From positions 1 to 64,000 of IMG/VR virus record IMGVR_UViG_3300009314_000007: 64,000 nucleotides of DNA; one strand, 5' to 3'. Each line of letters starts with the position of its first letter. Within the stretch, counting starts at the first letter, position 1. Of the stretch, positions 11,718-60,914 are shown in pieces. The notes under the pieces were generated by a model. The model did not search any database. It was not told where the DNA came from and saw only the letters and a program-made list of their open reading frames with translations. Made by a program: the position numbers and the translations under genes. This stretch comes from a virus.

Positions 11718-12526
11718 ATGCCCGATCAACAGAGTATACTGGATGGGCCACTGGGCGATGTGCTTCGGCGACTACTGGGTTCTGAGCCTGATATACCGTG
11801 CGGCGATTCGGATTGTCCGGCTTGTGGCGCCGAGTCGGCCATCCGGACAGGTCAGATGGCTCGGCGAGCGCTGGAACTCAGCTACCCGGAACTGGCCAAA
11901 AAGCTCAGGTACAATGGAAGGTGGGCCGGGCTCTCCCTTGTCTCGCCGCTCGACGAAGGCGAGCGGTACCGCGTTCTCGTTACGACCGGCAAGGTCGCGA
12001 AGACAACGAGGAGATCTCCGTGCCGCTCGCGCAGGTGGCGATGGTTGTGGCGGCTCTGCTCGCCCCGTCCGGGAAGCCACTTGCGGTTCGGGTGAGCTAT
12101 CCCAGCGCCGAGTGGGTGCGGATTTCCAGCAATCTGGAACTCCAGCCAGTGGGTATGCTGAACCTGGAGACCGCGAAGGCGGCCGACAAGCTGTCCGAAG
12201 GCATGAAGAATTTCGCGCTGACCGTGCTCGAAATCCCGGGGGTGGAACGGGCGGTGTTCGAGCGATACACCGTGTCGATGTGTGTTGCCTCTTTCCGCGC
12301 CCCGAAGGATGTGGGGCGGGAGCTACTCCGGATAATCGGCACGAAGCTCGACCGCAACATCCAAGTGCAGGTGGATGATGATCCCCCTGCCGCTTCGGCG
12401 GAAACCGCCGCGGAGCCGCACAACGAGGAAACGGACGAAGAGGAGCTGGAACACGACTCCGATGCGGAGGGCGAGAGTAAGGCGGCAGGGGAACCCGCGA
12501 CTCGCGCCGAGGCGCCGCTCCCCTAG
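11718..12526 (+). pseudogene. Frameshifted gene (or sequencing error) with C-terminal Nfu_N-like domain
   Basis: aaggag RBS then ATG 11718; coding sense switches by -1 near 11990; FALTVLEIPGVERAVF resembles the Nfu/NifU N-terminal domain. Confidence 0.5.
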
Positions 12527-12552
12527 TCTTTTCTCCGATGTTCTTTCACACG

Positions 12553-12587
12553 AGCCCCGGCTGGGTAACCCCCAGTCGGGGTTTTTT
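12553..12587 (+). terminator. Rho-independent terminator
   Basis: ccccggctggg / cccagtcgggg stem followed by T tracts. Confidence 0.85.
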
Positions 12588-12640
12588 CGTTTTTTGATGA
12601 AAGGCACGTTGGCCTTTCACGTATAGAAAGGAGGAGACCG

Positions 12641-13303: not shown

Positions 13304-13789
13304 ATGTCCGAAGGTGCTGTAGATGCCGGAGATTTGGCCGCGGCCTCGACCCCGTTAGTGTCTACCAGCGAGCAAGAAGCGCCTGTCGAAAACAGGCGTT
13401 CGTTGGTCAGTTCCGCGAGAATCTGGGCCCACTCGCAGTGGAAATCCCGCGTTAGCCCCGTCGCGAGACGGCAGCGGGAGGTCGCGAGCAGGCATTTCGC
13501 TCGGGGCCGCAACTGGTCCCGGAGGCTCACCCTCTGGGTCCCTGGCGCCGCCATGGCCGCCGTGCTGACGGCCAGCGGCTTTTTGTTCGAGGGTTGGGAG
13601 TTGATGGCGCTCCTCGGTTTCTTGGTTAGCTTGATTGGCTGGTCGGGGATTGGGGGCGGCCTGATGATCCTGGCTCTCACCAGCGTGCTGCTTCGCCACA
13701 CATCCCAGTCTCGCCGCTCGCGGCAGGCCAGGGACGAAGGCATCAGCTACGAGGAGCCCGAAGACAGCGACGGTGAGGGCTACTGGTAG
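13304..13789 (+). CDS. Membrane protein
   Basis: aaggag RBS; two to three hydrophobic segments. Confidence 0.7.
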   Translation: MSEGAVDAGDLAAASTPLVSTSEQEAPVENRRSLVSSARIWAHSQWKSRVSPVARRQREVASRHFARGRNWSRRLTLWVPGAAMAAVLTASGFLFEGWELMALLGFLVSLIGWSGIGGGLMILALTSVLLRHTSQSRRSRQARDEGISYEEPEDSDGEGYW

Positions 13790-13816
13790 TGCGCTCGAAA
13801 CAGAACGAGGGGAAGT

Positions 13817-14293
13817 GCCCGGTTCCGTGCCGATCTTTGGCATCTTCACGGCATGGAACCGGGCCAACCTCTCACACACCAGGGCGCAATCCCGATGATA
13901 GTGATTTCAAGGGTGAGGCCAAGAGTACGGGTAGTGCATGGAATGCGGGGCGAGAAGGGTCCCGCCGTACTGCTTTCTTGGTTTTTCTGACACGAAGGCG
14001 GTCCGAACGGAATGTGACGGGTCGCTGCTTTCTCAAGGTTTTTATAGCCTGGGGGCCTCTCCCCCGTTGTACCATCGAACTCCAGTCGAATGTCTCTCTC
14101 CCGGAAAGGAGGACAACTCCCATACGGGAGGAAGTTTACAGGGAGAATACGAGACCGTTCGAGAGTAACCGACGAAGTACGACAGTCAACCCATACATTA
14201 CTACTATCGGGTTTGCGCCCCGGACACTCGCCCATTGGCGAGGACCAAAGCGCGGTAGTTCATAGAACTACCGTGCTGGTCCTTGCCAATGGG
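13817..14293 (+). ncRNA. Candidate large structured non-coding RNA of unknown family
   Basis: 565-bp intergenic gap; long-range stem 13882-13916 with 14186-14220 and flanking hairpins 13817-13864 and 14231-14293, with G-U pairs on the + strand. Confidence 0.55.
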
Positions 14294-14353
14294 TTCTTAC
14301 TTCCCTTTTGTTTAGGCCCTGGGGAACTTAGCTTTAGCTATTGGGAGAAACAC

Positions 14354-14869
14354 ATGACTCGGAAACAGAGAGAAGACCAGCTCGTGATCGGCGATAGCCC
14401 TTCCGGGATGCCGCCACCTAATCACCTCGTGCCACTGGATGAGTACGATGACGAGGAGCTGGGACTGCATTTGAAGTGGCCCTTGGCCTCTCTTCTGCAC
14501 GACAGCGTCGATCACGGGCAGGAGCTGGGCGTGTTCGTGGACACCGCGAAGCATAAGACCGGGGGGCGGTACGAGTGGCAGGATCACCCGCCGACCTGGA
14601 TGGACCCGCATGTCTTTGCCGACATGGTCATGGCCGACGAGCGAGTTCAGAAGATCTTGCGAGTGGCAATGAAGAAGGACGATCCGAATGCCTGGAAGAG
14701 AATCCTGGGGCTGATTGACGACATTTTCGATTCGCAGTACCTGCCGTACGTGATGAAGAAGTTCGAGAAGGCGGCGCCGCTGCTGTCGCGCTGGGTGCTG
14801 CTCTGTCATGCGTACCGAGAAACTGACCCAGGTAAGAAGTCGAAGAAGAAGACTAGGCGAACAAGGTAG
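14354..14869 (+). CDS. Hypothetical protein
   Basis: gggag RBS before ATG 14354. Confidence 0.75.
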   Translation: MTRKQREDQLVIGDSPSGMPPPNHLVPLDEYDDEELGLHLKWPLASLLHDSVDHGQELGVFVDTAKHKTGGRYEWQDHPPTWMDPHVFADMVMADERVQKILRVAMKKDDPNAWKRILGLIDDIFDSQYLPYVMKKFEKAAPLLSRWVLLCHAYRETDPGKKSKKKTRRTR

Positions 14870-29220: not shown

Positions 29221-31966
29221 GGCACTCCCTCGCTGTACTGTGAATGCGTCCTTACAATGGAACCAAGTTTTCAAGACGCTTGGAATCCGTTACTCCGCCG
29301 ATATTCTCCCTGCGCGGGCCGCGTGCCCTTTCTGTCGTCAGAATCGAATGTTGGTATTCGAGGATCATGTCAGCAAGGGCCAGTGGTTTTCCTGTCAACA
29401 CTGTTTGCAATCGGGCGACATAGTGCAACTGGTGGCGAGGCACTGGGAGCTTTCGGAGGAATCGGCCATCGTCAAGTTGTCGAAGATGGGTTTCTCCATC
29501 GACCCTGCCGAAAGCAATCTCCAGCGGTATCACGCTGTCACCAGTCGCTGTAACCGTTTTGCCGAGTTCTGGCAGCAGGTCCGTCAGAACCTCATTCATG
29601 GTAGCACATCCGCGATCAGTCTGGTACACGACCTGAAATTAGCGTGCGGCGTCTCGCAAGATCGGTGGAATCGGGGCCTCGGGCAACTTCTGGGCGGGGT
29701 CTCGCATAAAGAGGCAGAACAGGCCTACCATCCGCATTCCGAGAACCAGACCCGCAATTCCTCTGAACACCGGCTTTTCCGGGGAGGGAAATGGGGCGAC
29801 GTGCTCGTTTTTCCGTACTGGCAGTTGCCGGGAAAGCTCTCGGGGTTTCTATTTGTGGGTCGGGAGGGGGACCCGGAGAAAGACTTCGTATTTCGAGCCA
29901 TTCACCACAACGGATCGTCGGCCTCGTCGTCGTTCGGCAACGAGGCCGGGCTGCTTCTGCACCCCCAGGTCCCGCAAGTCGCGGTCAGCTACGGCAACCA
30001 TGTGGTGGCTATCGACGACCCGGTGCTGTCCATTCGGATGCAGGCCCGGAACTTCGAGGCGTCCGGCTGGCCGTTGCCCCTGGTGTGCTGCCATGCGGAA
30101 GACAATCGCCGGGAGCGAGCGCAGACGCTGCATGGCTGGAAGCAGTTCATGGGCATTCGCCCGGTGATCTGGATGCCGCGCTACGACCGCACGCTTGTCG
30201 AGCAGGCGATTGTCGCTGGAGCCAGGATCTCTCTCATGCGGCCCGAAGACACGTCCGACGCGGGTCTCTGGCGGTACATCACCAACTACCCGCCGCAAGA
30301 GCTGCTTCGCCGGATCATTCGGCACTCCAAGCCCTGGCCACAGGCCATGACACAACTGGTCCAGGAGCTGGACGATGGGGCTATTGAAGACCTGTTCTAC
30401 TATTTGGAGATGGATAAGCTGGAGCCCGCTCGCGTGCTAGAGCGCTGCGATCCAAAAGTCCGCAAGCACTTTCGGACCTTGTCGGCCAGCAGGCCCGTTC
30501 GTCGCGTTGTCCCTCTTTCCCCGACAGTGCTCGTTGCCGAGATCGACGACTCCTGGTTCCTGGAGGCCCGCCAAGGGCACTCGCCACTCGTGTCGGATGC
30601 GATCATCCGAATCCGCGATACCATTCATCAGAAGACGACGGGCTACACGTACTATCGTGGCGAGATCCTGCATCAGGGCAAGGCTTTCGAGTTCTGCGAA
30701 TCGAAAGAGGCGCTAAAGAAGGACACCTGGAACTGGCTGGAGGACTTCCTGGACGCGAGGGGGCATGTCCTACGAGGAAACTCCCGGCATAGCAAGGACC
30801 TGATCGACATTGCGATCCAGCTCCACTGCCCTGAGCACAGCTACGGCGTGGACTCGGTAGGCTGGGATCTCCGCAACAGTCGATTGCTGCTTCCAAACTA
30901 CTATCTTACAGCGGGCGGCGATGTTCATTCGTACGACGCACAGATACCGACGCCCGACACGCCCGGCCGGAACTTGCTCCGCCCCTGCGATTTGTCCCCT
31001 GCGGAACTGGATGCTACCGCGGAAGATCCAGACATGGCGGGCCCCTTGTGGGCTTGTTTCATTGCCGCCATGGCCAACATCGTGGCTCCTGCGTATCGAC
31101 AACCCACCTCGGGCATAGGTCTGGTGGGCGCCGGGGCGGAGCTGGCCGGGCAGGGTATCGCGGATGCTATGGGCTGCACGAACTACCAGTTCTCCGGTCG
31201 GTATGGAAAAGACCAGGCGACCGAAGCCGAGCGTCGGCACGGCTGGCCCATCTTCGTGCAGTTGCCCACGGCTTCGATTCATAAGAAGGCCATGAACGAG
31301 TGGTTGAATATCGGCGGGACGCATCGCCACAACTGCTTGGTGTCGCTCCCCTGGTTCGTGTCCCGAGCGAAGATCCTTTTTGGTGGTTGGCATATCGTTC
31401 GGGCAGATCAGCCGATTATCTTCTCGGAGACGACCGTTGATGCGTTCAGCAAGCTCACGTCTGCGTACCTGGCCGATCTGGCCAAGCGTCACTTCAAGTT
31501 GTCGCACTGGGGGTCCGGCAGGAATCCGCCCTGGCTGATCTCCGTGGCGAAAGACATTCGCCAGTTTGTTGAACCGCAACTGCCGGGCTGGTTGGATACG
31601 GTTTCTCCCAAACAATGGATCGCTCACGAGACCCGCAAGGTGACAGCGGACCCGCTGGGCTCCATGCTGGGTCATCTGGCTTCTGAGGGCAAACTCTTGG
31701 TTGGGTCCGCCCGCAGCGACGTGCGGCGACCCTCGCTGCTGCCGCTGGATGAGGGGATGTTGTTGGACAAGCTCGATCTACTCAAGCTGCTCGATAAGGA
31801 GAAGGTGACTCTCATCAATCCCGCGAGAATCACGTCGGCCCTGGCTAACTCCGGCGCATTGGTGGGCGTTCACGACCGGGGTTGGATCTTGCAGCCCGCG
31901 TGGTGGGACAAGCAGCTCGCGAAGTTCACAGCCAGGGAGCAGCACCGGTTGAAGATTGTTCGTTAG
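29219..31966 (+). CDS. Large primase/helicase-like protein with N-terminal zinc finger, apparently degenerate
   Basis: CPFC...CQHC..GDIVQLV resembles primase Zn finger; no intact TOPRIM acidic motif or Walker A seen; start uncertain. Confidence 0.5.
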   Translation: MALPRCTVNASLQWNQVFKTLGIRYSADILPARAACPFCRQNRMLVFEDHVSKGQWFSCQHCLQSGDIVQLVARHWELSEESAIVKLSKMGFSIDPAESNLQRYHAVTSRCNRFAEFWQQVRQNLIHGSTSAISLVHDLKLACGVSQDRWNRGLGQLLGGVSHKEAEQAYHPHSENQTRNSSEHRLFRGGKWGDVLVFPYWQLPGKLSGFLFVGREGDPEKDFVFRAIHHNGSSASSSFGNEAGLLLHPQVPQVAVSYGNHVVAIDDPVLSIRMQARNFEASGWPLPLVCCHAEDNRRERAQTLHGWKQFMGIRPVIWMPRYDRTLVEQAIVAGARISLMRPEDTSDAGLWRYITNYPPQELLRRIIRHSKPWPQAMTQLVQELDDGAIEDLFYYLEMDKLEPARVLERCDPKVRKHFRTLSASRPVRRVVPLSPTVLVAEIDDSWFLEARQGHSPLVSDAIIRIRDTIHQKTTGYTYYRGEILHQGKAFEFCESKEALKKDTWNWLEDFLDARGHVLRGNSRHSKDLIDIAIQLHCPEHSYGVDSVGWDLRNSRLLLPNYYLTAGGDVHSYDAQIPTPDTPGRNLLRPCDLSPAELDATAEDPDMAGPLWACFIAAMANIVAPAYRQPTSGIGLVGAGAELAGQGIADAMGCTNYQFSGRYGKDQATEAERRHGWPIFVQLPTASIHKKAMNEWLNIGGTHRHNCLVSLPWFVSRAKILFGGWHIVRADQPIIFSETTVDAFSKLTSAYLADLAKRHFKLSHWGSGRNPPWLISVAKDIRQFVEPQLPGWLDTVSPKQWIAHETRKVTADPLGSMLGHLASEGKLLVGSARSDVRRPSLLPLDEGMLLDKLDLLKLLDKEKVTLINPARITSALANSGALVGVHDRGWILQPAWWDKQLAKFTAREQHRLKIVR

Positions 31967-33858
31967 CCCCAGGCATCCCAGTTGATTTCGGAGGGGTTGA
32001 GCATTCGCAGGATCTCCGGATGCAGTGCGAGCCTCGCTAACTCCGCCATATTCGGCCAGTGGTCAACTCGCCAGAACAGGGCGCAGGCCCCCATGTTGAC
32101 CGAGTGAGCGAAGTCGTCCGGGCCTGCTTGTTCGTCGCGAATGATCGTGTACACGTCGGAGCCAAGCCGACTGTCCACCATGTCCTCGGTGAGGGACAGG
32201 AAGTCGGAGATGATCGGCGCATCCGTGGCTCCGTCCCAACGGAAGAACTTGATTTTGCCGTAACGAATCAGGTTGCAGCACTGTACCAGGCTTCGAGCCT
32301 TATCAAGCTGGTAGTGCATTCGCTCGCCCGTTCTCGGGTTGTAGTTTTTTCGACGCATGAGTGGGCCGTGGCCAGCTCGCAGGTAGACCATTGGGATGAC
32401 CCGCCGCGAGGGGTAACCGGCGTTGACGATAATGGTCTCTCGGGCATCCCCGGCTCCGTTGTAGTCGTGGACCAGGTGCGTGCAGTGCCAGGCGGCCATG
32501 ATGCGGAAGATCTCGCGGCACTCGGCGTTGTGATCGTGTGGCGTGCGACTCCTCCAGGCGTAGAGCACGTCGATGTCCCCGTTGGCTTTCATGCCCAGTA
32601 CGGACGCGACGGTGAACGAGGTCTCTTTCTGTCCACCGCCACCCCAGTCCACAGAGACCATACGGTGAATGTAGTCGCCGATGTGTCCGGCGGCGTAGCT
32701 CAGGTCGTTCGGACGATCAGCACAGGCTCGCTTCAATTCGGTTTGCGTGATCAGCCGAGCGCCTTCATCGTAGCTTTCTCCGCACACCTCGTTCCAGTAC
32801 GCTGCATCGGTGATCAAGCCGAAGCCCGCTCGCTTGCCAAGCAACACGCCCCATTTTTCGGGGTCGGCGTAGTGCATCGGCATGATCTGCTGAGGCACGT
32901 GGTAGCCCTCGGCGATATTCAGCAACTCTTCGTTGTGATGAAACCAGCGCCCGTCTCTCGGGTAAATCGGCTTGCCGCAGCGAGGCCTGGCGCACACCAG
33001 GGCAGGGTGGGCTTCCGAGATCTCGCGGTCCACGTGGTCCGGACCCGTCATCCGCGTGAGATCATGTTCGAGCGATGGAATGTTTTCGTAACCACACGCC
33101 CGGCAGAAAATGTGCCACTCGGCTTGGGAGGAATCCAGCCAGAGCTTTTCCAGCGTTCCATTCAGCGTCTTCGGGGTTCCAGTATGCTGCTCGATCCCGC
33201 CGTACTTCGAGCCGGACATTGTCTCGTTGATAATCGGGATGAAGGATGGGTCGAGATCCTGCACTTCGTCGAATGAGTTCTTGGACGTGTTTAATCCACG
33301 AGTACGGTCGCAGTTCTGGAACGCGAACGAGAAAAACATCTTCGACTCGTTCTTGAAGCCGCGCTGCAACACGTTCTGCGTGGTGTGGCTGTCCACCATG
33401 AGTCGCTTGATTGGCGACTCACGAATGAAGCCAGCCACGTAGTTCGAGGAGAACCGGCGAATCATTTCAAACAGCGGGGTCACGTACAACGTGTTGAAGT
33501 ACGGGATGCAGTTGCTGCTGATAATTCCCTGGGTGGCCAGCGACGTGGACTTGGATACCTGCCGAGCGCATTTGAGCACTATCCGGTGGATCATTCGAGT
33601 CTTGAAGAAGGGCTCGAACGGAAAGTGATCGTCGAGCGTGTACGGCTCCCCGTTCAGATTGAGCATGATTGGGAGCAGGTATTTGAGGTTCGGGAGCCTG
33701 CCGTCCTGGATGGCCCAGGCGGCTGCTTTCAAGTGGTCCTCTATGTCGAGTTTCAGCTTCCGCTGCTGGGCGATTCTGGTCTCGACCGAATCCCGGTGGC
33801 TGGAGTGGCTGCCCTTTGTGAAGACGCCCGTGTGACTCTTCCGAATTGCTATGGACAT
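31963..33858 (-). CDS. terL: Terminase large subunit (GpA-like)
   Basis: KCARQVSKST Walker A region, FDEVQD Walker B, GTPKT coupling motif, CRAC/CGKP Zn motif, VSVDWG and DDFAHS nuclease motifs. Confidence 0.9.
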   Translation of the reverse strand: MSIAIRKSHTGVFTKGSHSSHRDSVETRIAQQRKLKLDIEDHLKAAAWAIQDGRLPNLKYLLPIMLNLNGEPYTLDDHFPFEPFFKTRMIHRIVLKCARQVSKSTSLATQGIISSNCIPYFNTLYVTPLFEMIRRFSSNYVAGFIRESPIKRLMVDSHTTQNVLQRGFKNESKMFFSFAFQNCDRTRGLNTSKNSFDEVQDLDPSFIPIINETMSGSKYGGIEQHTGTPKTLNGTLEKLWLDSSQAEWHIFCRACGYENIPSLEHDLTRMTGPDHVDREISEAHPALVCARPRCGKPIYPRDGRWFHHNEELLNIAEGYHVPQQIMPMHYADPEKWGVLLGKRAGFGLITDAAYWNEVCGESYDEGARLITQTELKRACADRPNDLSYAAGHIGDYIHRMVSVDWGGGGQKETSFTVASVLGMKANGDIDVLYAWRSRTPHDHNAECREIFRIMAAWHCTHLVHDYNGAGDARETIIVNAGYPSRRVIPMVYLRAGHGPLMRRKNYNPRTGERMHYQLDKARSLVQCCNLIRYGKIKFFRWDGATDAPIISDFLSLTEDMVDSRLGSDVYTIIRDEQAGPDDFAHSVNMGACALFWRVDHWPNMAELARLALHPEILRMLNPSEINWDAWG

Positions 33859-56341: not shown

Positions 56342-57468
56342 CAATTGAGGTGCTCAACCCGGCTCTTTACGGCGGGCTGGTCCGTCGTTATGGGCGGGAA
56401 TCTATTGAGATCGTCGCACCTGGCGAGCGCATCGAATGGTCGGTGCGTAAAACGCGGCCGGGCGAGGCGGGAGAGCTGAAGCGCGAGGTGGAGCATTCCG
56501 GTGAGGAGTATCGGATGCGGTGTCCGTTTTGTAAGGATCACCGTCCGAGACTCTATGTCAATCACCGGTTTGGTGTGGAGGACCCGCGAACGGGCTTGCT
56601 CAACTTGTGGCTCGCGCAGTGCTTTAACGAGCGGTGCTTTGAGGATTACGAGAACTGCGAGCTGTTTTGGGATTCCGTTTACTCGATTTCACGGGACATG
56701 GCGGGGACCATACGGATTGGAGAGGGGAAGAAGGCGTCGAGCGAGGTTCGGGAGGTGGCGCCACCAGGTCCAATGTGGCGACTTGACGAGTTGGCAAGAA
56801 ACCATCCAAACCACCACGCGGTGCAGTACCTGGCGGGCAGGCATTTCGATCCCGGTAAGATTGGGAGGCTTTGGGGTGCCGCGTACTGTCCGCGGGCCCA
56901 TGTGTACAACATGGCGTCCGACAAGATCATCATCCCGATTTACTGGCGGGGCGAGATGGTTGGCTGGCAGGCTCGATACATCGGAGATGACGTGAAGGGC
57001 GTGCCGTTCAATAAGGCAGGCGTGGCCAAGTATTGGTCGTCCCCGGGCTTCAAGCGGAGTCGGGTGGCTTACAATTTTTGGAGAGCAGTGCAACACCCCA
57101 CTGCGGTTATCGTGGAGGGCATGACCGATGTATGGAGCATGGGCATGCAGTCGATGGGTGTATTTGGAAAGACAATGAGTGCCCCGCTTCGGCGATTGTT
57201 GTTGCAGGAGATGTCGGATAGGCATCGGCCGGAGGAGGCGGTGATCGTCATCTTGCTGGACCCCAAGAAGGATAAGAAGGACAAGGTTCACCACATTGAG
57301 AGACTGTATGGACAGCTTGCGAATCAGGGAGCGGCTGTCCGCGTGCTGAAAGTGTATCTTCCCCCGGAAGTGGACCCGGGGAGTAGCGAGCGTGCGTGGT
57401 TGCGAGACTACATTCGCGAGAAAGCAGACGAGGTAGGTTACCCCGTCAGTTTTAGGAAACCGACATGA
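56338..57468 (+). CDS. DNA primase (Zn finger plus TOPRIM)
   Basis: CPFCKD..C Zn finger, IIIPI..GWQAR..KY, IVEGMTD, LLD, DPG. Confidence 0.88.
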   Translation: MTIEVLNPALYGGLVRRYGRESIEIVAPGERIEWSVRKTRPGEAGELKREVEHSGEEYRMRCPFCKDHRPRLYVNHRFGVEDPRTGLLNLWLAQCFNERCFEDYENCELFWDSVYSISRDMAGTIRIGEGKKASSEVREVAPPGPMWRLDELARNHPNHHAVQYLAGRHFDPGKIGRLWGAAYCPRAHVYNMASDKIIIPIYWRGEMVGWQARYIGDDVKGVPFNKAGVAKYWSSPGFKRSRVAYNFWRAVQHPTAVIVEGMTDVWSMGMQSMGVFGKTMSAPLRRLLLQEMSDRHRPEEAVIVILLDPKKDKKDKVHHIERLYGQLANQGAAVRVLKVYLPPEVDPGSSERAWLRDYIREKADEVGYPVSFRKPT

Positions 57469-60400
57469 CAAAAGAACGCAGAAAGCTGATTCGCAAAGGA
57501 GGCCCCGGGCTTGCCGCGAAGACGAAAGAGCCGGTCACCACTAACGTTATTGGAGAGGCTGACAAGAAGCCGAAGAAGAAAGCGGTGTTGGCGAAACGTA
57601 GGGACCAGCCAGCTCCGACGAGGTCCCGGCAACCCGCCGGAAATCTGTTTCCTTTGAACGCTCCGGGGATGCCGCTACCTGGCCCGGACTTGTTGGAGTA
57701 CGCCGCGGCGCTTGGCGGAACTCACGAGATAGTCGGGAAGAGCCGAAGCGCTCGCCTGACGCAGGCGGGTCAGACGCTGCCAGCCCTATTCAGGAAGATC
57801 CTTTATTCGTTTGGCGACATAGCCGTCCCGTTTAAGCACAAAGGTAAGCGTCACGACTTGTCGGTGGTAAGTGGCCACGTGTGGGGAGATCCGTTTGGAG
57901 AGTGCCGCGGGCCTCGTCAGGCGGACGTGATGGTGATCGCCAAGATGCTTGGTGACGAAGAGAACAATCAGGGAAGGAACATGATCGGCAACTCCGGGCA
58001 GTTATTTCTGGAGACCTGTCGAGAGCTGGGACTCCCTCGGATTTCTCGCTGGTACGTTACCAACCTGATGAAGACCCTGCATCCGGAGGCGGATTCCGGG
58101 GGCACGAGATTGACTGCGGCGATGATCAAGGAGTGGCTACCGTTTCTGCACCAGGAGATCCGTATCGTGCAGCCCAAGTACATTCTGTGCTTGGGGGCTG
58201 ATGCGAGCGCGGGTCTGTTGGAGTACGAGGGCGGGTTCAAGAGAAAGGACAAGTTCCGAGCCTCGATCAGTAACATGCAGGGCCGCATTGTCGAGTGGGA
58301 GTACCCGATCAGTCGCAAGGATGAGGGCAAGATCCAGTACAAGCAGGCACTGGTCATGTCCATCACGCATCCCGCCGCCGTGCTGCACGCCCCTGAGCAG
58401 GAGGACGTGTACGTCAACGGCGTAGCCAGGTTCGGGCAGATGATCAAGGGAATGCGGTGGGACAAGGAGGAGGAGGGTCTTGATCACAGGACGATTACTT
58501 CGCTCGTCGAGTTGAAAGAGCTGTACCACGAGATCAGAGCGGACTGCGAGGATAACTTGCTCGGGATCGACGCCGAGTGGCACGGGGATCACCCGCAGAA
58601 CAAGGGCAGCTACCTGCGCACTATACAGATTTCCTGGAAGCACAAGGCCGCGGTCTGCATCAGGCTACGTGCCCCAGGCGGTGCCTGGGCTTTCGCGGGG
58701 TGCGGCCGAAAGACTGTCGCGAAATGGGTTAAGAGGATTTGTAAGGGAAGGAGGCTCGCAGGGCACTTCTTCTCTGCCGACCTCGAATGGCTGATCGACT
58801 TCGGTATTGATCTTCGCGAGGAGTTCATGGTCCCGGACACTTGGACGGAGTACATGAAGCGGTGGCGGCGTAAGAAGGGTTGCGGGTTCGATACTGGTCT
58901 AGCCGCACACGGCATAGCAGAGACCGACGATTTCAGCCTAACATCACTCACGCTGCGACATACGACTGCTCCTCGTTACGATGTAGCGCTGGTGAAGTGG
59001 GTTGCGGATTACTGCAATGAGCACAAGCTGAAGAAGGAGGAGCTGGAGGGTTATGGGGAGTGTCCTGACGATGTGCTGATTCCCTACGGCATCTACGATG
59101 CCGACGTGACTCGGCGAATCGCGGTGAAGTTCGCTAGGAGGTTATTCAAGGATCGTTTCAACAACAACTGCTGGGAAGCGTTCTGGATGTCCATGCGGGC
59201 CCAACCGGCAGCTTTGGAGATGAATATGAGCGGCGTGCAGATCGACCGGGAGCGACTTGATCGTCTCACGGAGACCTACATGTCGGCCAAGGCCAAGCTG
59301 GAGAACACAGTGCGCACTTGGGCTCGGTGGCCCGATATGAATCTGAACTCGGTGTTTCATATTCGCGAGTTTCTCTACGGGGAGCGGTACAATGGGCACG
59401 AACACCCTGAGGGTACACCTCCCATTAGGAAGCGTCCGGCAGACGGCAGGTCCCTGAAGCTCAATCCGATCCTCACTACGGATAAGCGGCCCATGCGGTG
59501 GTCCGAGGTGGTGCAGAAGGGATTGGAAGACCAGAAGACGCCGAGCACGGACAAGATGTGCCTGGCCATCTTGGCGCAGGACAATCAGGCGGTCCGGAAA
59601 TGGCACCCTACGAAGCTGGATTACCGTACGTACGATTTCAGCAAGCAGGTCACCTGGGTTCGGGATTACCGGTTCATCAGTCAGGTGCTCAAGAGCATGC
59701 TGAGGACTCCGAAGATCGAGAAGCTGCCGGACAAGACCGAGGCGTTCTTGAAGAAAGACGACTACTACGTCTACCCTGGCGGGCTCCCCGCCGCGGTTTG
59801 CGACGATAGCCGGGTGCGAACCCACTTCTATCAAACCAAGGAGACCGGTCGATGGGCCTCGGCCCGTCCGCCGCTGCAAAACCTGACTAAGCGAAGGGAG
59901 GTGGATTACAAGCGGATTCTGGGTCCAGATTACAAGTGGGCACTTAGGACTATCATTACGGCTCGGCCGGGGCACTTGCTTCTGGAGGCGGATATTACCG
60001 GCGCCGAGCTGGCGGGCATGGCGATTATGTCTGGCGACAAGAGGATGATCGAGCACGCGCAGAGAAACGTGCTGGCGGAAGACGATCCCAATTACTACGA
60101 CATCCACAGCCACGTTGCCGTGCTGGCGTTCCGCTTGGACTGTGAGCCCACCAAGGGCGGTCTGGAATTGATTGGGATGAAGCACATGCGGCTCGTGGCC
60201 AAGAGTGTGATCTTCGGTATCGCTTACGGGCGGGGAGCCAAGGCCATCGCGTTGGCTGCGAAGGAGGAGGGAGTCAATATCACGGTCGAGGAAGCGCAGC
60301 GGGTGATCGACACGATCTTCCGGATGTACCCGAGACTGGTGCCGTTCTTCGAGGCTTGTCGTGCTCGCTCCAGAGATCCTCGGTGGATCTGTGGTTGTCT

Positions 60401-60914
60401 TGGTCGTTTTCGTCGTTTCCCGGTTGCCCGAGAATGGGTAGTCCAGGGCGACTTCGAGCGACAGGCGATGAACTTCCCGATGCAGAACATGGTGGCAGAT
60501 GTAATGAGCAGGGTTGTGGATCACCTGTATCATTATCGAGAAGAATACCCGGACGTGACCTATCGCATGGTGGCGCAGATTCACGACGCGGTGTTGTTGG
60601 AGGTTCCGTACGCGCATGTGTCGCGTGTGATCGACGAAGTGATTCCCGAGTGCATGGTCAATCGCGTACCGATCTACCCGTGTACGCTGGACGGAATGCC
60701 GACAGGTAAGGGCCCCTACTATTTCGGTGCGGACATCGACCCGTATCATCGGTGGGGGCAGGATATGGCTCCGGATGAGTGCATGAAAATTGGACTCGAT
60801 CCGAAGTACGCGCACTGGACGCAGACCGCGAATGGTTATCTGCATCCAGAGAAGAAAGACAAGATTTGGGTTGGGGACATCCATGGAGGAGAACTTGTGT
60901 CTCTGGCGCCCTAA
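57465..60914 (+). CDS. polA: Family A DNA polymerase with N-terminal uracil-DNA-glycosylase-like domain (SPO1-type architecture)
   Basis: UDG-like YVTNLMK, PKYILCLG, HPAAVL; exonuclease GIDAE, YDAD; polymerase TGRWAS, ADITGAE, R..AK..FGIAYG, QIHDA. Confidence 0.93.
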   Translation: MTKERRKLIRKGGPGLAAKTKEPVTTNVIGEADKKPKKKAVLAKRRDQPAPTRSRQPAGNLFPLNAPGMPLPGPDLLEYAAALGGTHEIVGKSRSARLTQAGQTLPALFRKILYSFGDIAVPFKHKGKRHDLSVVSGHVWGDPFGECRGPRQADVMVIAKMLGDEENNQGRNMIGNSGQLFLETCRELGLPRISRWYVTNLMKTLHPEADSGGTRLTAAMIKEWLPFLHQEIRIVQPKYILCLGADASAGLLEYEGGFKRKDKFRASISNMQGRIVEWEYPISRKDEGKIQYKQALVMSITHPAAVLHAPEQEDVYVNGVARFGQMIKGMRWDKEEEGLDHRTITSLVELKELYHEIRADCEDNLLGIDAEWHGDHPQNKGSYLRTIQISWKHKAAVCIRLRAPGGAWAFAGCGRKTVAKWVKRICKGRRLAGHFFSADLEWLIDFGIDLREEFMVPDTWTEYMKRWRRKKGCGFDTGLAAHGIAETDDFSLTSLTLRHTTAPRYDVALVKWVADYCNEHKLKKEELEGYGECPDDVLIPYGIYDADVTRRIAVKFARRLFKDRFNNNCWEAFWMSMRAQPAALEMNMSGVQIDRERLDRLTETYMSAKAKLENTVRTWARWPDMNLNSVFHIREFLYGERYNGHEHPEGTPPIRKRPADGRSLKLNPILTTDKRPMRWSEVVQKGLEDQKTPSTDKMCLAILAQDNQAVRKWHPTKLDYRTYDFSKQVTWVRDYRFISQVLKSMLRTPKIEKLPDKTEAFLKKDDYYVYPGGLPAAVCDDSRVRTHFYQTKETGRWASARPPLQNLTKRREVDYKRILGPDYKWALRTIITARPGHLLLEADITGAELAGMAIMSGDKRMIEHAQRNVLAEDDPNYYDIHSHVAVLAFRLDCEPTKGGLELIGMKHMRLVAKSVIFGIAYGRGAKAIALAAKEEGVNITVEEAQRVIDTIFRMYPRLVPFFEACRARSRDPRWICGCLGRFRRFPVAREWVVQGDFERQAMNFPMQNMVADVMSRVVDHLYHYREEYPDVTYRMVAQIHDAVLLEVPYAHVSRVIDEVIPECMVNRVPIYPCTLDGMPTGKGPYYFGADIDPYHRWGQDMAPDECMKIGLDPKYAHWTQTANGYLHPEKKDKIWVGDIHGGELVSLAP

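Follow-up and report, generated by a model that had tools for sequence, protein, structure and literature searches.

A candidate family of large structured noncoding RNA with a narrow distribution in an uncultivated large-phage lineage

To our knowledge, large and highly structured RNAs without a known function are rare, and each of the few described classes (ROOL, GOLLD, OLE, and raiA) has opened new biology; ROOL and GOLLD are often phage-borne. ROOL, GOLLD, and OLE are large orphan structured noncoding RNAs (ncRNAs) for which cryo-EM is available (bioRxiv 10.1101/2024.12.08.627333). In TIGR systems, Tas is a Nop-domain protein whose gene usually flanks or overlaps a TIGR array, and stem-loop tigRNAs are hairpins that carry guides in internal loops and occupy variable positions around tas (PMC12045711; bioRxiv 10.64898/2026.09.09.750476); a compact viral TasR branch that is array-less has also been noted (bioRxiv 10.64898/2026.09.09.750476). 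The IS110-family bridge RNA, of ~177 nt, lies in the noncoding end of its element beside the recombinase (PMC12045711).

The locus described here lies in the first 64 kb (the window, i.e., the whole stretch of DNA that was analyzed) of a 107-kb IMG/VR record with a CheckV completeness of ~51%. A ~560-nt gap between the genes for a 161-amino-acid (161-aa) and a 171-aa protein probably holds a new, narrowly distributed family of structured phage ncRNA, encoded on the plus strand. A new phage RNA class had been proposed in the initial annotation of this DNA and is still the best reading, given the plus-strand structure, the covariation, and the lack of an Rfam match, with three instances known.

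The phage, the flanking genes, and relatives of the locus

The record represents a tailed phage of an uncultivated large-phage lineage. Nearly all genes of the window are carried on the plus strand; the large terminase gene (31963-33858) is on the minus strand, and its product had 29% identity to the terminase of the 181-kb Salmonella phage Arash. The window further encodes an SF2 helicase, an SbcC/Rad50-like protein, and a fusion of UDG with PolA. The 1149-aa ORF at 57465-60914 (plus strand) comprised a uracil-DNA glycosylase domain, a 3'-5' exonuclease, and a family A DNA polymerase. A classical intrinsic terminator, with a 14-bp G+C-rich stem followed by TTTTCGTTTTT, was observed on the plus strand at 12552-12584; it falls within a nominal ORF (12375-12626) that may be miscalled or may have its real end earlier.

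Among the genes around the RNA element, almost no Pfam or PHROG matches were found (Table 1). Searches of both collections with the 161-aa upstream protein gave no match, and its homologues precede the element in all three related loci described below. The 171-aa downstream protein was likewise negative in Pfam and PHROG and assignable to no family; it had eight relatives in a large protein collection, all of them metagenomic, and its AlphaFold2 model was weak (pLDDT 59) with the exception of the C-terminal helices. The protein atlas gave no usable lead for either this protein or the TasR-like protein considered below.

A metagenome scan with an alignment of the relatives of the 171-aa protein yielded three loci (L002, L003, and L004), in all of which the gene order around the element is conserved. 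In L002, the downstream protein was 84% identical and the full intergenic region had 89% nucleotide identity. In L003, with a downstream protein of 58% identity, the gap was 600 nt long and had no blastn similarity to that of the window, and a shared-6-mer chain between the two was uninformative; nevertheless, its layout matched that of the window, with a 5' hairpin ahead of a domain of several branches that is closed by a 23-bp stem, and a long hairpin on the 3' side (fold z -15.2). In L004, with a downstream protein of 44% identity, the gap was only ~160 nt and consisted of a small 5' hairpin, a 27-bp hairpin, and the same pre-gene motif; the core was absent. The flanking hairpins are thus either older than the core or independent of it, and the core, which L004 manages without, is dispensable or accessory and constitutes an indel relative to a conserved framework of hairpin, hairpin, and motif. 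L004 is the most divergent of the four loci, and the indel is compatible with both a gain and a loss of the core.

Further homologues were found neither by blastn against GenBank phages nor by protein-guided scans of IMG/VR (using the 171-aa protein, its alignment, a GT9 protein, and a 354-aa protein), by a scan of genome contigs with the 171-aa protein alignment, or by tblastn of the 354-aa protein against phages. A scan for the motif TCGAWCTCCAGTCG-N55-85-CCGRCGAA gave 1 viral and 47 genomic matches, none of which extended past the pattern. Elsewhere in the record, the conserved motifs recurred only by chance, e.g., within a coding region at 100943. Two readings as a repeated sequence were rejected: the element does not recur as a promoter or terminator, nor does the downstream motif CTTAGNTTTARCYAT as a phage promoter.

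Table 1. Positions in the window of the elements of the gap, its flanking genes, and the distant TasR/IS110-fold gene
Feature	Positions	Strand	Description or basis
161-aa ORF upstream of gap	13304-13789	+	Hydrophobic, membrane-like C-terminal half
Purine tract GAGGGGAAG	13807-13815	+	MFE; RNAalifold columns 8-16/571-579
5' hairpin	13817-13864	+	16-bp stem, 16-nt loop
Pyrimidine-rich linker CAACCUCUCACACA	13865-13878	+	Alignments; C/U-rich equivalent in L002 and L003
Core RNA domain	13879-14223	+	345 nt, multi-branched, closed by P1
P1 closing stem	13879-13905 with 14197-14223	+	24 pairs; one mismatch shared by all three sequences
P2 arm	13915-13985	+	Three-part hairpin: 13915-25/13975-85, 13930-37/13967-74, 13945-51/13959-65
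P4 hairpin	13994-14032	+	
P5 (AGGUU/AGCCU) and P6 (GGGGG/CCCCC, loop CCUCU)	14036-14065	+	Small hairpins
P7 arm	14066-14183	+	118-nt hairpin
3' hairpin	14230-14294	+	~30 bp; then U-rich UUCUUACUUCCCUUUUGUUU
Conserved spacer before 171-aa gene	14295-14353	+	TGTTTAG 14309-14315; CTTAGCTTTAGCTAT 14327-14341; RBS GGGAG 14343-14347
171-aa ORF downstream of gap	14354-14869	+	GGGAG RBS in front; basic N- and C-termini; invariant HPPTWMDPH
TasR/IS110-fold protein gene	50642-51703	+	AlphaFold2 model

A structured, noncoding plus-strand element under purifying selection

The noncoding gap spans 13790-14353, and a comparison with the ORF list was consistent with the claim that it is the largest noncoding gap. 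The plus-strand minimum free energy (MFE) of 13790-14355 was -262.8 kcal/mol, compared with -193.9 +/- 6.3 for dinucleotide shuffles (z -10.95), and the plus-strand fold was more stable by 30 kcal/mol than that of the minus strand (-232.2 kcal/mol, z -6.54). When folding energy was regressed on GC for 364 windows (350 nt each), the segment 14015-14364 was the top plus-strand outlier of the 64 kb (z -4.06), although windows of this length cut the closing stem. An inverted-repeat search returned arms of 38 nt at 13879-13916/14186-14223 (74% complementary), arms of 16 nt at 13817-13832/13849-13864 (94% complementary), and two sets of arms at 14231-14247/14277-14293 and 14249-14261/14265-14277 that together make ~30 bp. 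Every helix listed in the initial annotation was located by this search; one of its sub-helices (agtacgg/ccgtact) is nonetheless not the supported one, as the changes in L002 keep GGUAGUGC/GUACUGCU (13930-13937/13967-13974).

Between the window and L002, differences were found in 25 of 328 paired columns and in 33 of 160 unpaired columns. All 20 changed pairs were still paired (5 by compensatory change, 15 via plus-strand G-U, none broken), a count made on a structure derived from these same two sequences and for which the addition of L003 provided an independent check. Each of the 15 one-sided changes passed through a G-U on the plus strand and would be an A-C mismatch on the minus strand; the plus strand is therefore the functional one, and the earlier impression of a G-U bias toward it proved real. 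In a three-way MAFFT alignment of P1 and the 3' hairpin (51 pairs), 94.1% of cells were paired and 10 double compensatory changes were counted, versus 3.4 +/- 1.5 in shuffles (0 of 500 reached 10); controls in which the register was slid by 1 to 3 columns had at most 2 double changes. For the P7 arm, the best L003 match to a covariance model built from the window and L002 (model R1) was collinear (2373-2468, 11.3 bits, E 0.022), and the inner helix of P7 in L003 was rebuilt with different bases. As only three instances are available and two of them are close relatives, this covariation rests on few independent events, and the instances that were scored are also those from which the structure was built.

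The helical elements differed in how far they were shared. The purine tract upstream of the 5' hairpin has two possible alternative partners, namely, the CCUCUC linker (13867-13873) and CUUCCCUUU (14300-14308), and pairing with the latter would enclose the entire ~500-nt unit. The stem of the 5' hairpin was retained in L002 via wobble and compensatory changes, and its apical loop and upper stem (13833-13848) had only 31% identity to L002, compared with ~72% at nearby third codon positions; judging from this alignment, the segment may have been replaced or may turn over faster than neutral. Within P2, the pair 13922/13978 showed an A-U to G-C compensation. P5 and P6 could not be matched one to one with hairpins of L003, in which two other small hairpins follow P7. 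The only sequence blocks in common with L003 lie in P7, namely, UCGAWCUCCAGUCG (14075-14088) and CCGACGAA (14169-14176), which make two short helices flanking a conserved internal loop of ~7 by 7 nt. In the base of the 3' hairpin (16 bp), 100% of positions were paired in all three sequences, with 4 compensatory pairs. When L003 was included, 12 of 22 pairs of P1 and 11 of 16 of the 3' hairpin base were invariant. Given that the peripheral hairpins differ between the window and L003, conservation is demonstrable for no more than the overall layout, P1, the flanking hairpins, and the base of P7. Two of the L003 hairpins (2319-2348 and 2513-2534) share the arms CGGUGCGU/ACGCACUG, an internal hairpin duplication by which the peripheral branches of the RNA are seen to turn over. 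The motif of the spacer that follows the 3' hairpin was retained in L002, L003, and L004 and occurs once in the window; this spacer probably serves the downstream gene as its promoter or 5' leader.

Identity to L002 was 91.4% in the core and 92.3% in the 3' hairpin, while third codon positions in five flanking genes had 70 to 75% (four genes) or 85% (the fifth); the rate of evolution of the core is about one-third of that at third codon positions. Every long ORF on either strand is shifted by indels, of 1 and 2 nt in the core and of 1 nt in the loop of the 3' hairpin. Translations of the core ORFs from the window and from L002 agreed except where the frame is shifted, and a protein-coding test of the core found no open frame conserved between relatives. 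The core is noncoding and under purifying selection.

Class membership, a proposed mode of action, and competing explanations

The claim that the element belongs to no known RNA class held when it was checked against Rfam, with no match in the window at the gathering threshold and no tRNA or tmRNA detected by ARAGORN. Even at E <= 10, Rfam 15 gave no match in 13600-14500, including to ROOL, GOLLD, OLE, raiA, HEARO, 6S, RNase P, SRP, Y RNA, introns, or ribozymes; L002 and L003 had only sub-threshold matches to generic hairpins, which fell on the 3' hairpin. Protein partners of several RNA classes were absent from the 107-kb record, which is ~51% complete: there was no RVT_1 for a retron, no PF07282 for a TnpB/IscB omega RNA (HEARO also being unmatched in Rfam), no PF05731 (TROVE) for a Y RNA/Ro RNP (likewise without an Rfam match), and no PF02371 (Transposase_20) for an IS110 bridge RNA, the genes beside the RNA having no family matches.

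The reading that we prefer, and to which we would give an even chance when all of its parts are taken jointly, is that of a plus-strand ncRNA carried in the tail of the upstream transcript, delimited by stems, ended by the 3' hairpin, and acting in trans through its core. The RNA would most likely be made as the tail of the upstream transcript. No promoter-like site was found upstream in the gap, including the 14 nt that separate the 5' hairpin from P1. It would fold into the 345-nt multi-branched domain with a closing stem of 24 to 27 bp between two long hairpins, and P1 and the two hairpins, being long double-stranded stems, could define and protect it, e.g., if they are substrates for an enzyme of the RNase III type. 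Transcription may then end at the 3' hairpin and its U-rich tail. This hairpin was not called in a consensus terminator scan, the tail at this position in L003 is UCCUUUUUGUU, and it is not a textbook terminator, whereas the phage has a classical one at 12552-12584; the hairpin is possibly a terminator or a processing site. Once released, the core would act in trans during infection, either as a stable RNA or as an RNA-protein scaffold, and contacts would most likely be made at P1, with its conserved sequence, and at the internal loop that is conserved in P7.

The main rival is a boundary element that acts in cis: an intercistronic or 3'-untranslated module that sets how the upstream transcript decays, is processed, or terminates and that insulates it from the downstream unit, a role with parallels in the RNase III sites between phage T7 genes and in the lambda sib retroregulator. 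Such a role is suggested by the position of the element at the boundary of transcription units, where the stop codon is followed by a hairpin, the core, a second, long hairpin that leads into a U-rich tail, and then a conserved motif resembling a promoter or leader and the RBS, and by the failure to find a promoter of its own. L004, moreover, has both hairpins and the motif without the core, so that this framework would form the regulatory boundary, to which the core may have been added as an elaboration. On the other hand, a closed, self-contained domain of 345 nt that has a conserved closing stem and internal loop and evolves about 3 times more slowly than third codon positions far exceeds what known sites of processing or termination require. 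We therefore regard a purely cis-acting module as rather unlikely, although not to be set aside lightly.

A second alternative follows from the suggestion in the initial annotation that the RNA is the partner of Nop/RAMP proteins, and would make it the guide or scaffold of the distant TasR/IS110-fold protein (50642-51703). The AlphaFold2 model of this protein was confident (pLDDT 88.8, pTM 0.85, from a 22-sequence alignment), and its best match in VIA-align, which spanned the full length, was TIGR-TasR (9mty_B: Z 11.0, rmsd 4.9, 238 residues), ahead of the IS621 recombinase (Z 7.6, 7.3) and ISCro4 (6.9); in Foldseek, these structures had probabilities of 0.91 to 0.95 with weak E-values of 0.02 to 0.07. 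By these matches, the "Nop/IS110-like" part of the suggestion is structurally supported. Its "RAMP" part was not borne out, as there was no Pfam match at E <= 1 in 50642-51703 or 51682-52284 and PF03787 is absent from the record. A profile of the TasR-like protein found no solved relative by sequence, and no acidic residue was invariant among 22 homologues, an alignment-based hint that the nuclease site is dead.

A link between this protein and the RNA was not supported. In its favor, the gene has no adjacent noncoding space, so that the modeled protein would fit the array-less compact viral TasR branch (bioRxiv 10.64898/2026.09.09.750476); the RNA occurs on the 69.8-kb L002 contig together with a homologue of the protein at 85% identity; and the internal loop of P7 is conserved between two helices. 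Against it, the gene and the RNA are 37 kb apart, and the candidate loop sequences are conserved rather than variable. A search for the grammar of stem-loop tigRNAs (regular expression plus stem requirement) found neither tandem units nor the dual-spacer arrangement of box C and box D in any of the three cores (window, L002, and L003). The sole match lay in the downstream spacer (14305-14343, plus strand: CUU, 12 nt, UG..CUU, 12 nt, UG, with a 4-bp stem UUCC/GGAG) and was rejected as a tigRNA: its boxes were not kept in L002 or L003, it had no dual target in the 107-kb record, and it is probably a chance match or part of the promoter or leader. The tightly packed module to which the TasR-like gene belongs (an Mre11-like gene, Rad50, the TasR-like gene, a ~180-aa gene, and a helicase) is common to at least six other large IMG/VR phages (L062-L068), and five of these module-bearing records lack the gene that adjoins the RNA. 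A fold scan of a complete 226-kb phage (G004) found no comparable closed RNA, its top structural outliers being a coding stretch and a strand-symmetric, palindrome-rich regulatory region. Partnership with the TasR-like protein is for these reasons improbable, and its most elaborate version, in which a large distal scaffold or guide RNA directs a catalytically dead RuvC-Nop protein within the Mre11-Rad50-helicase module and so serves as the partner of an array-less viral TasR, is a long shot; if true, it would represent a new RNA-guided architecture tied to phage recombination or replication.

The palindrome-rich region of G004 (L069 11800-13200) is a low-GC stretch of ~1.3 kb, rich in perfect palindromes and in hairpins arranged in tandem (GCUACUUCCGARGUAGC twice; GTGAACG..CGTTCAC repeats). 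Both of its strands folded equally and it had no tRNA or Rfam match; it looks like a DNA-level regulatory or origin region.

According to a third alternative, the core was inserted between pre-existing hairpins as a selfish or accessory sequence, e.g., a mobile element without ORFs, the remnant of something like an intron, or an RNA cassette of the moron type, and its structure would serve its own mobility. At a locus that is otherwise conserved, L004 lacks the core that the window, L002, and L003 share, the closing stem joins both ends of the insert, and the duplication in L003 indicates that hairpins turn over. An insertion of this kind is nevertheless improbable: the element is single copy in the 107-kb record, and motif scans of the viral and genome collections gave only chance matches, which also speaks against a MITE or insertion sequence (IS); no transposase, reverse transcriptase, or homing endonuclease gene adjoins it; no group I/II intron or ribozyme was matched in Rfam by the window, L002, or L003; and the stem ends covary between relatives instead of staying fixed as terminal repeats, with the core under strong purifying selection.

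A DNA-level element (an origin of replication, a site of packaging or recombination, or a structure in single-stranded DNA) would account for inverted repeats on both strands and for a minus-strand fold that also beats chance, but is highly improbable in view of the more stable plus-strand fold, the G-U changes that would be A-C mismatches on the other strand in 15 of 15 cases, a GC skew without a turn near 14 kb, the lack of an adjacent replication or terminase gene, and the strand symmetry of the DNA-type palindromic region of G004, which this element does not share.

Comparison with described systems

The preferred reading, a trans-acting plus-strand ncRNA, concerns a clean candidate, with strand-specific covariation, selection stronger than that on neighboring third codon positions, and no family match. 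Its setting is an uncultivated large-phage lineage in which nearly every neighboring gene is also without assignment, and the same genome encodes a TasR/IS110-fold protein without a recognizable guide array. The narrow distribution, at three instances, limits the weight of the find.

With TIGR systems, the locus shares a TasR-fold protein encoded by the same phage. Unlike tigRNAs, which come as tandem units of ~36 to 54 nt with box C (CUU/CCA), box D (UG), and two 8- to 12-nt spacers, the element is a single closed domain of 345 nt, and unlike TIGR arrays it lies 37 kb from the TasR-like gene. The IS621 bridge RNA (PDB 8wt6, 8wt9) is likewise a structured RNA in which helices surround internal loops, and its recombinase is similar in fold to the phage protein (Z 7.6); in contrast to IS110 bridge RNAs, the element has no IS ends, no adjacency to the protein gene, and no Pfam IS110 domains. 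The long imperfect stem that joins its 5' and 3' ends and the hairpins between cistrons recall RNase III stems, such as the stalks of rRNA precursors, the intercistronic sites of T7, and lambda sib, an analogy that extends to the proposed processing only; the domain enclosed here is neither rRNA nor mRNA. Compared with ROOL, GOLLD, OLE, and raiA, the element matches none of their Rfam models, is smaller than GOLLD, ROOL, and OLE, is represented by three instances in one narrow phage lineage, and is not located beside tRNAs; it is like them in being a multi-branched RNA of several hundred nucleotides that is supported by covariation and has no known protein partner, and it is phage-borne, as is often true of ROOL and GOLLD.
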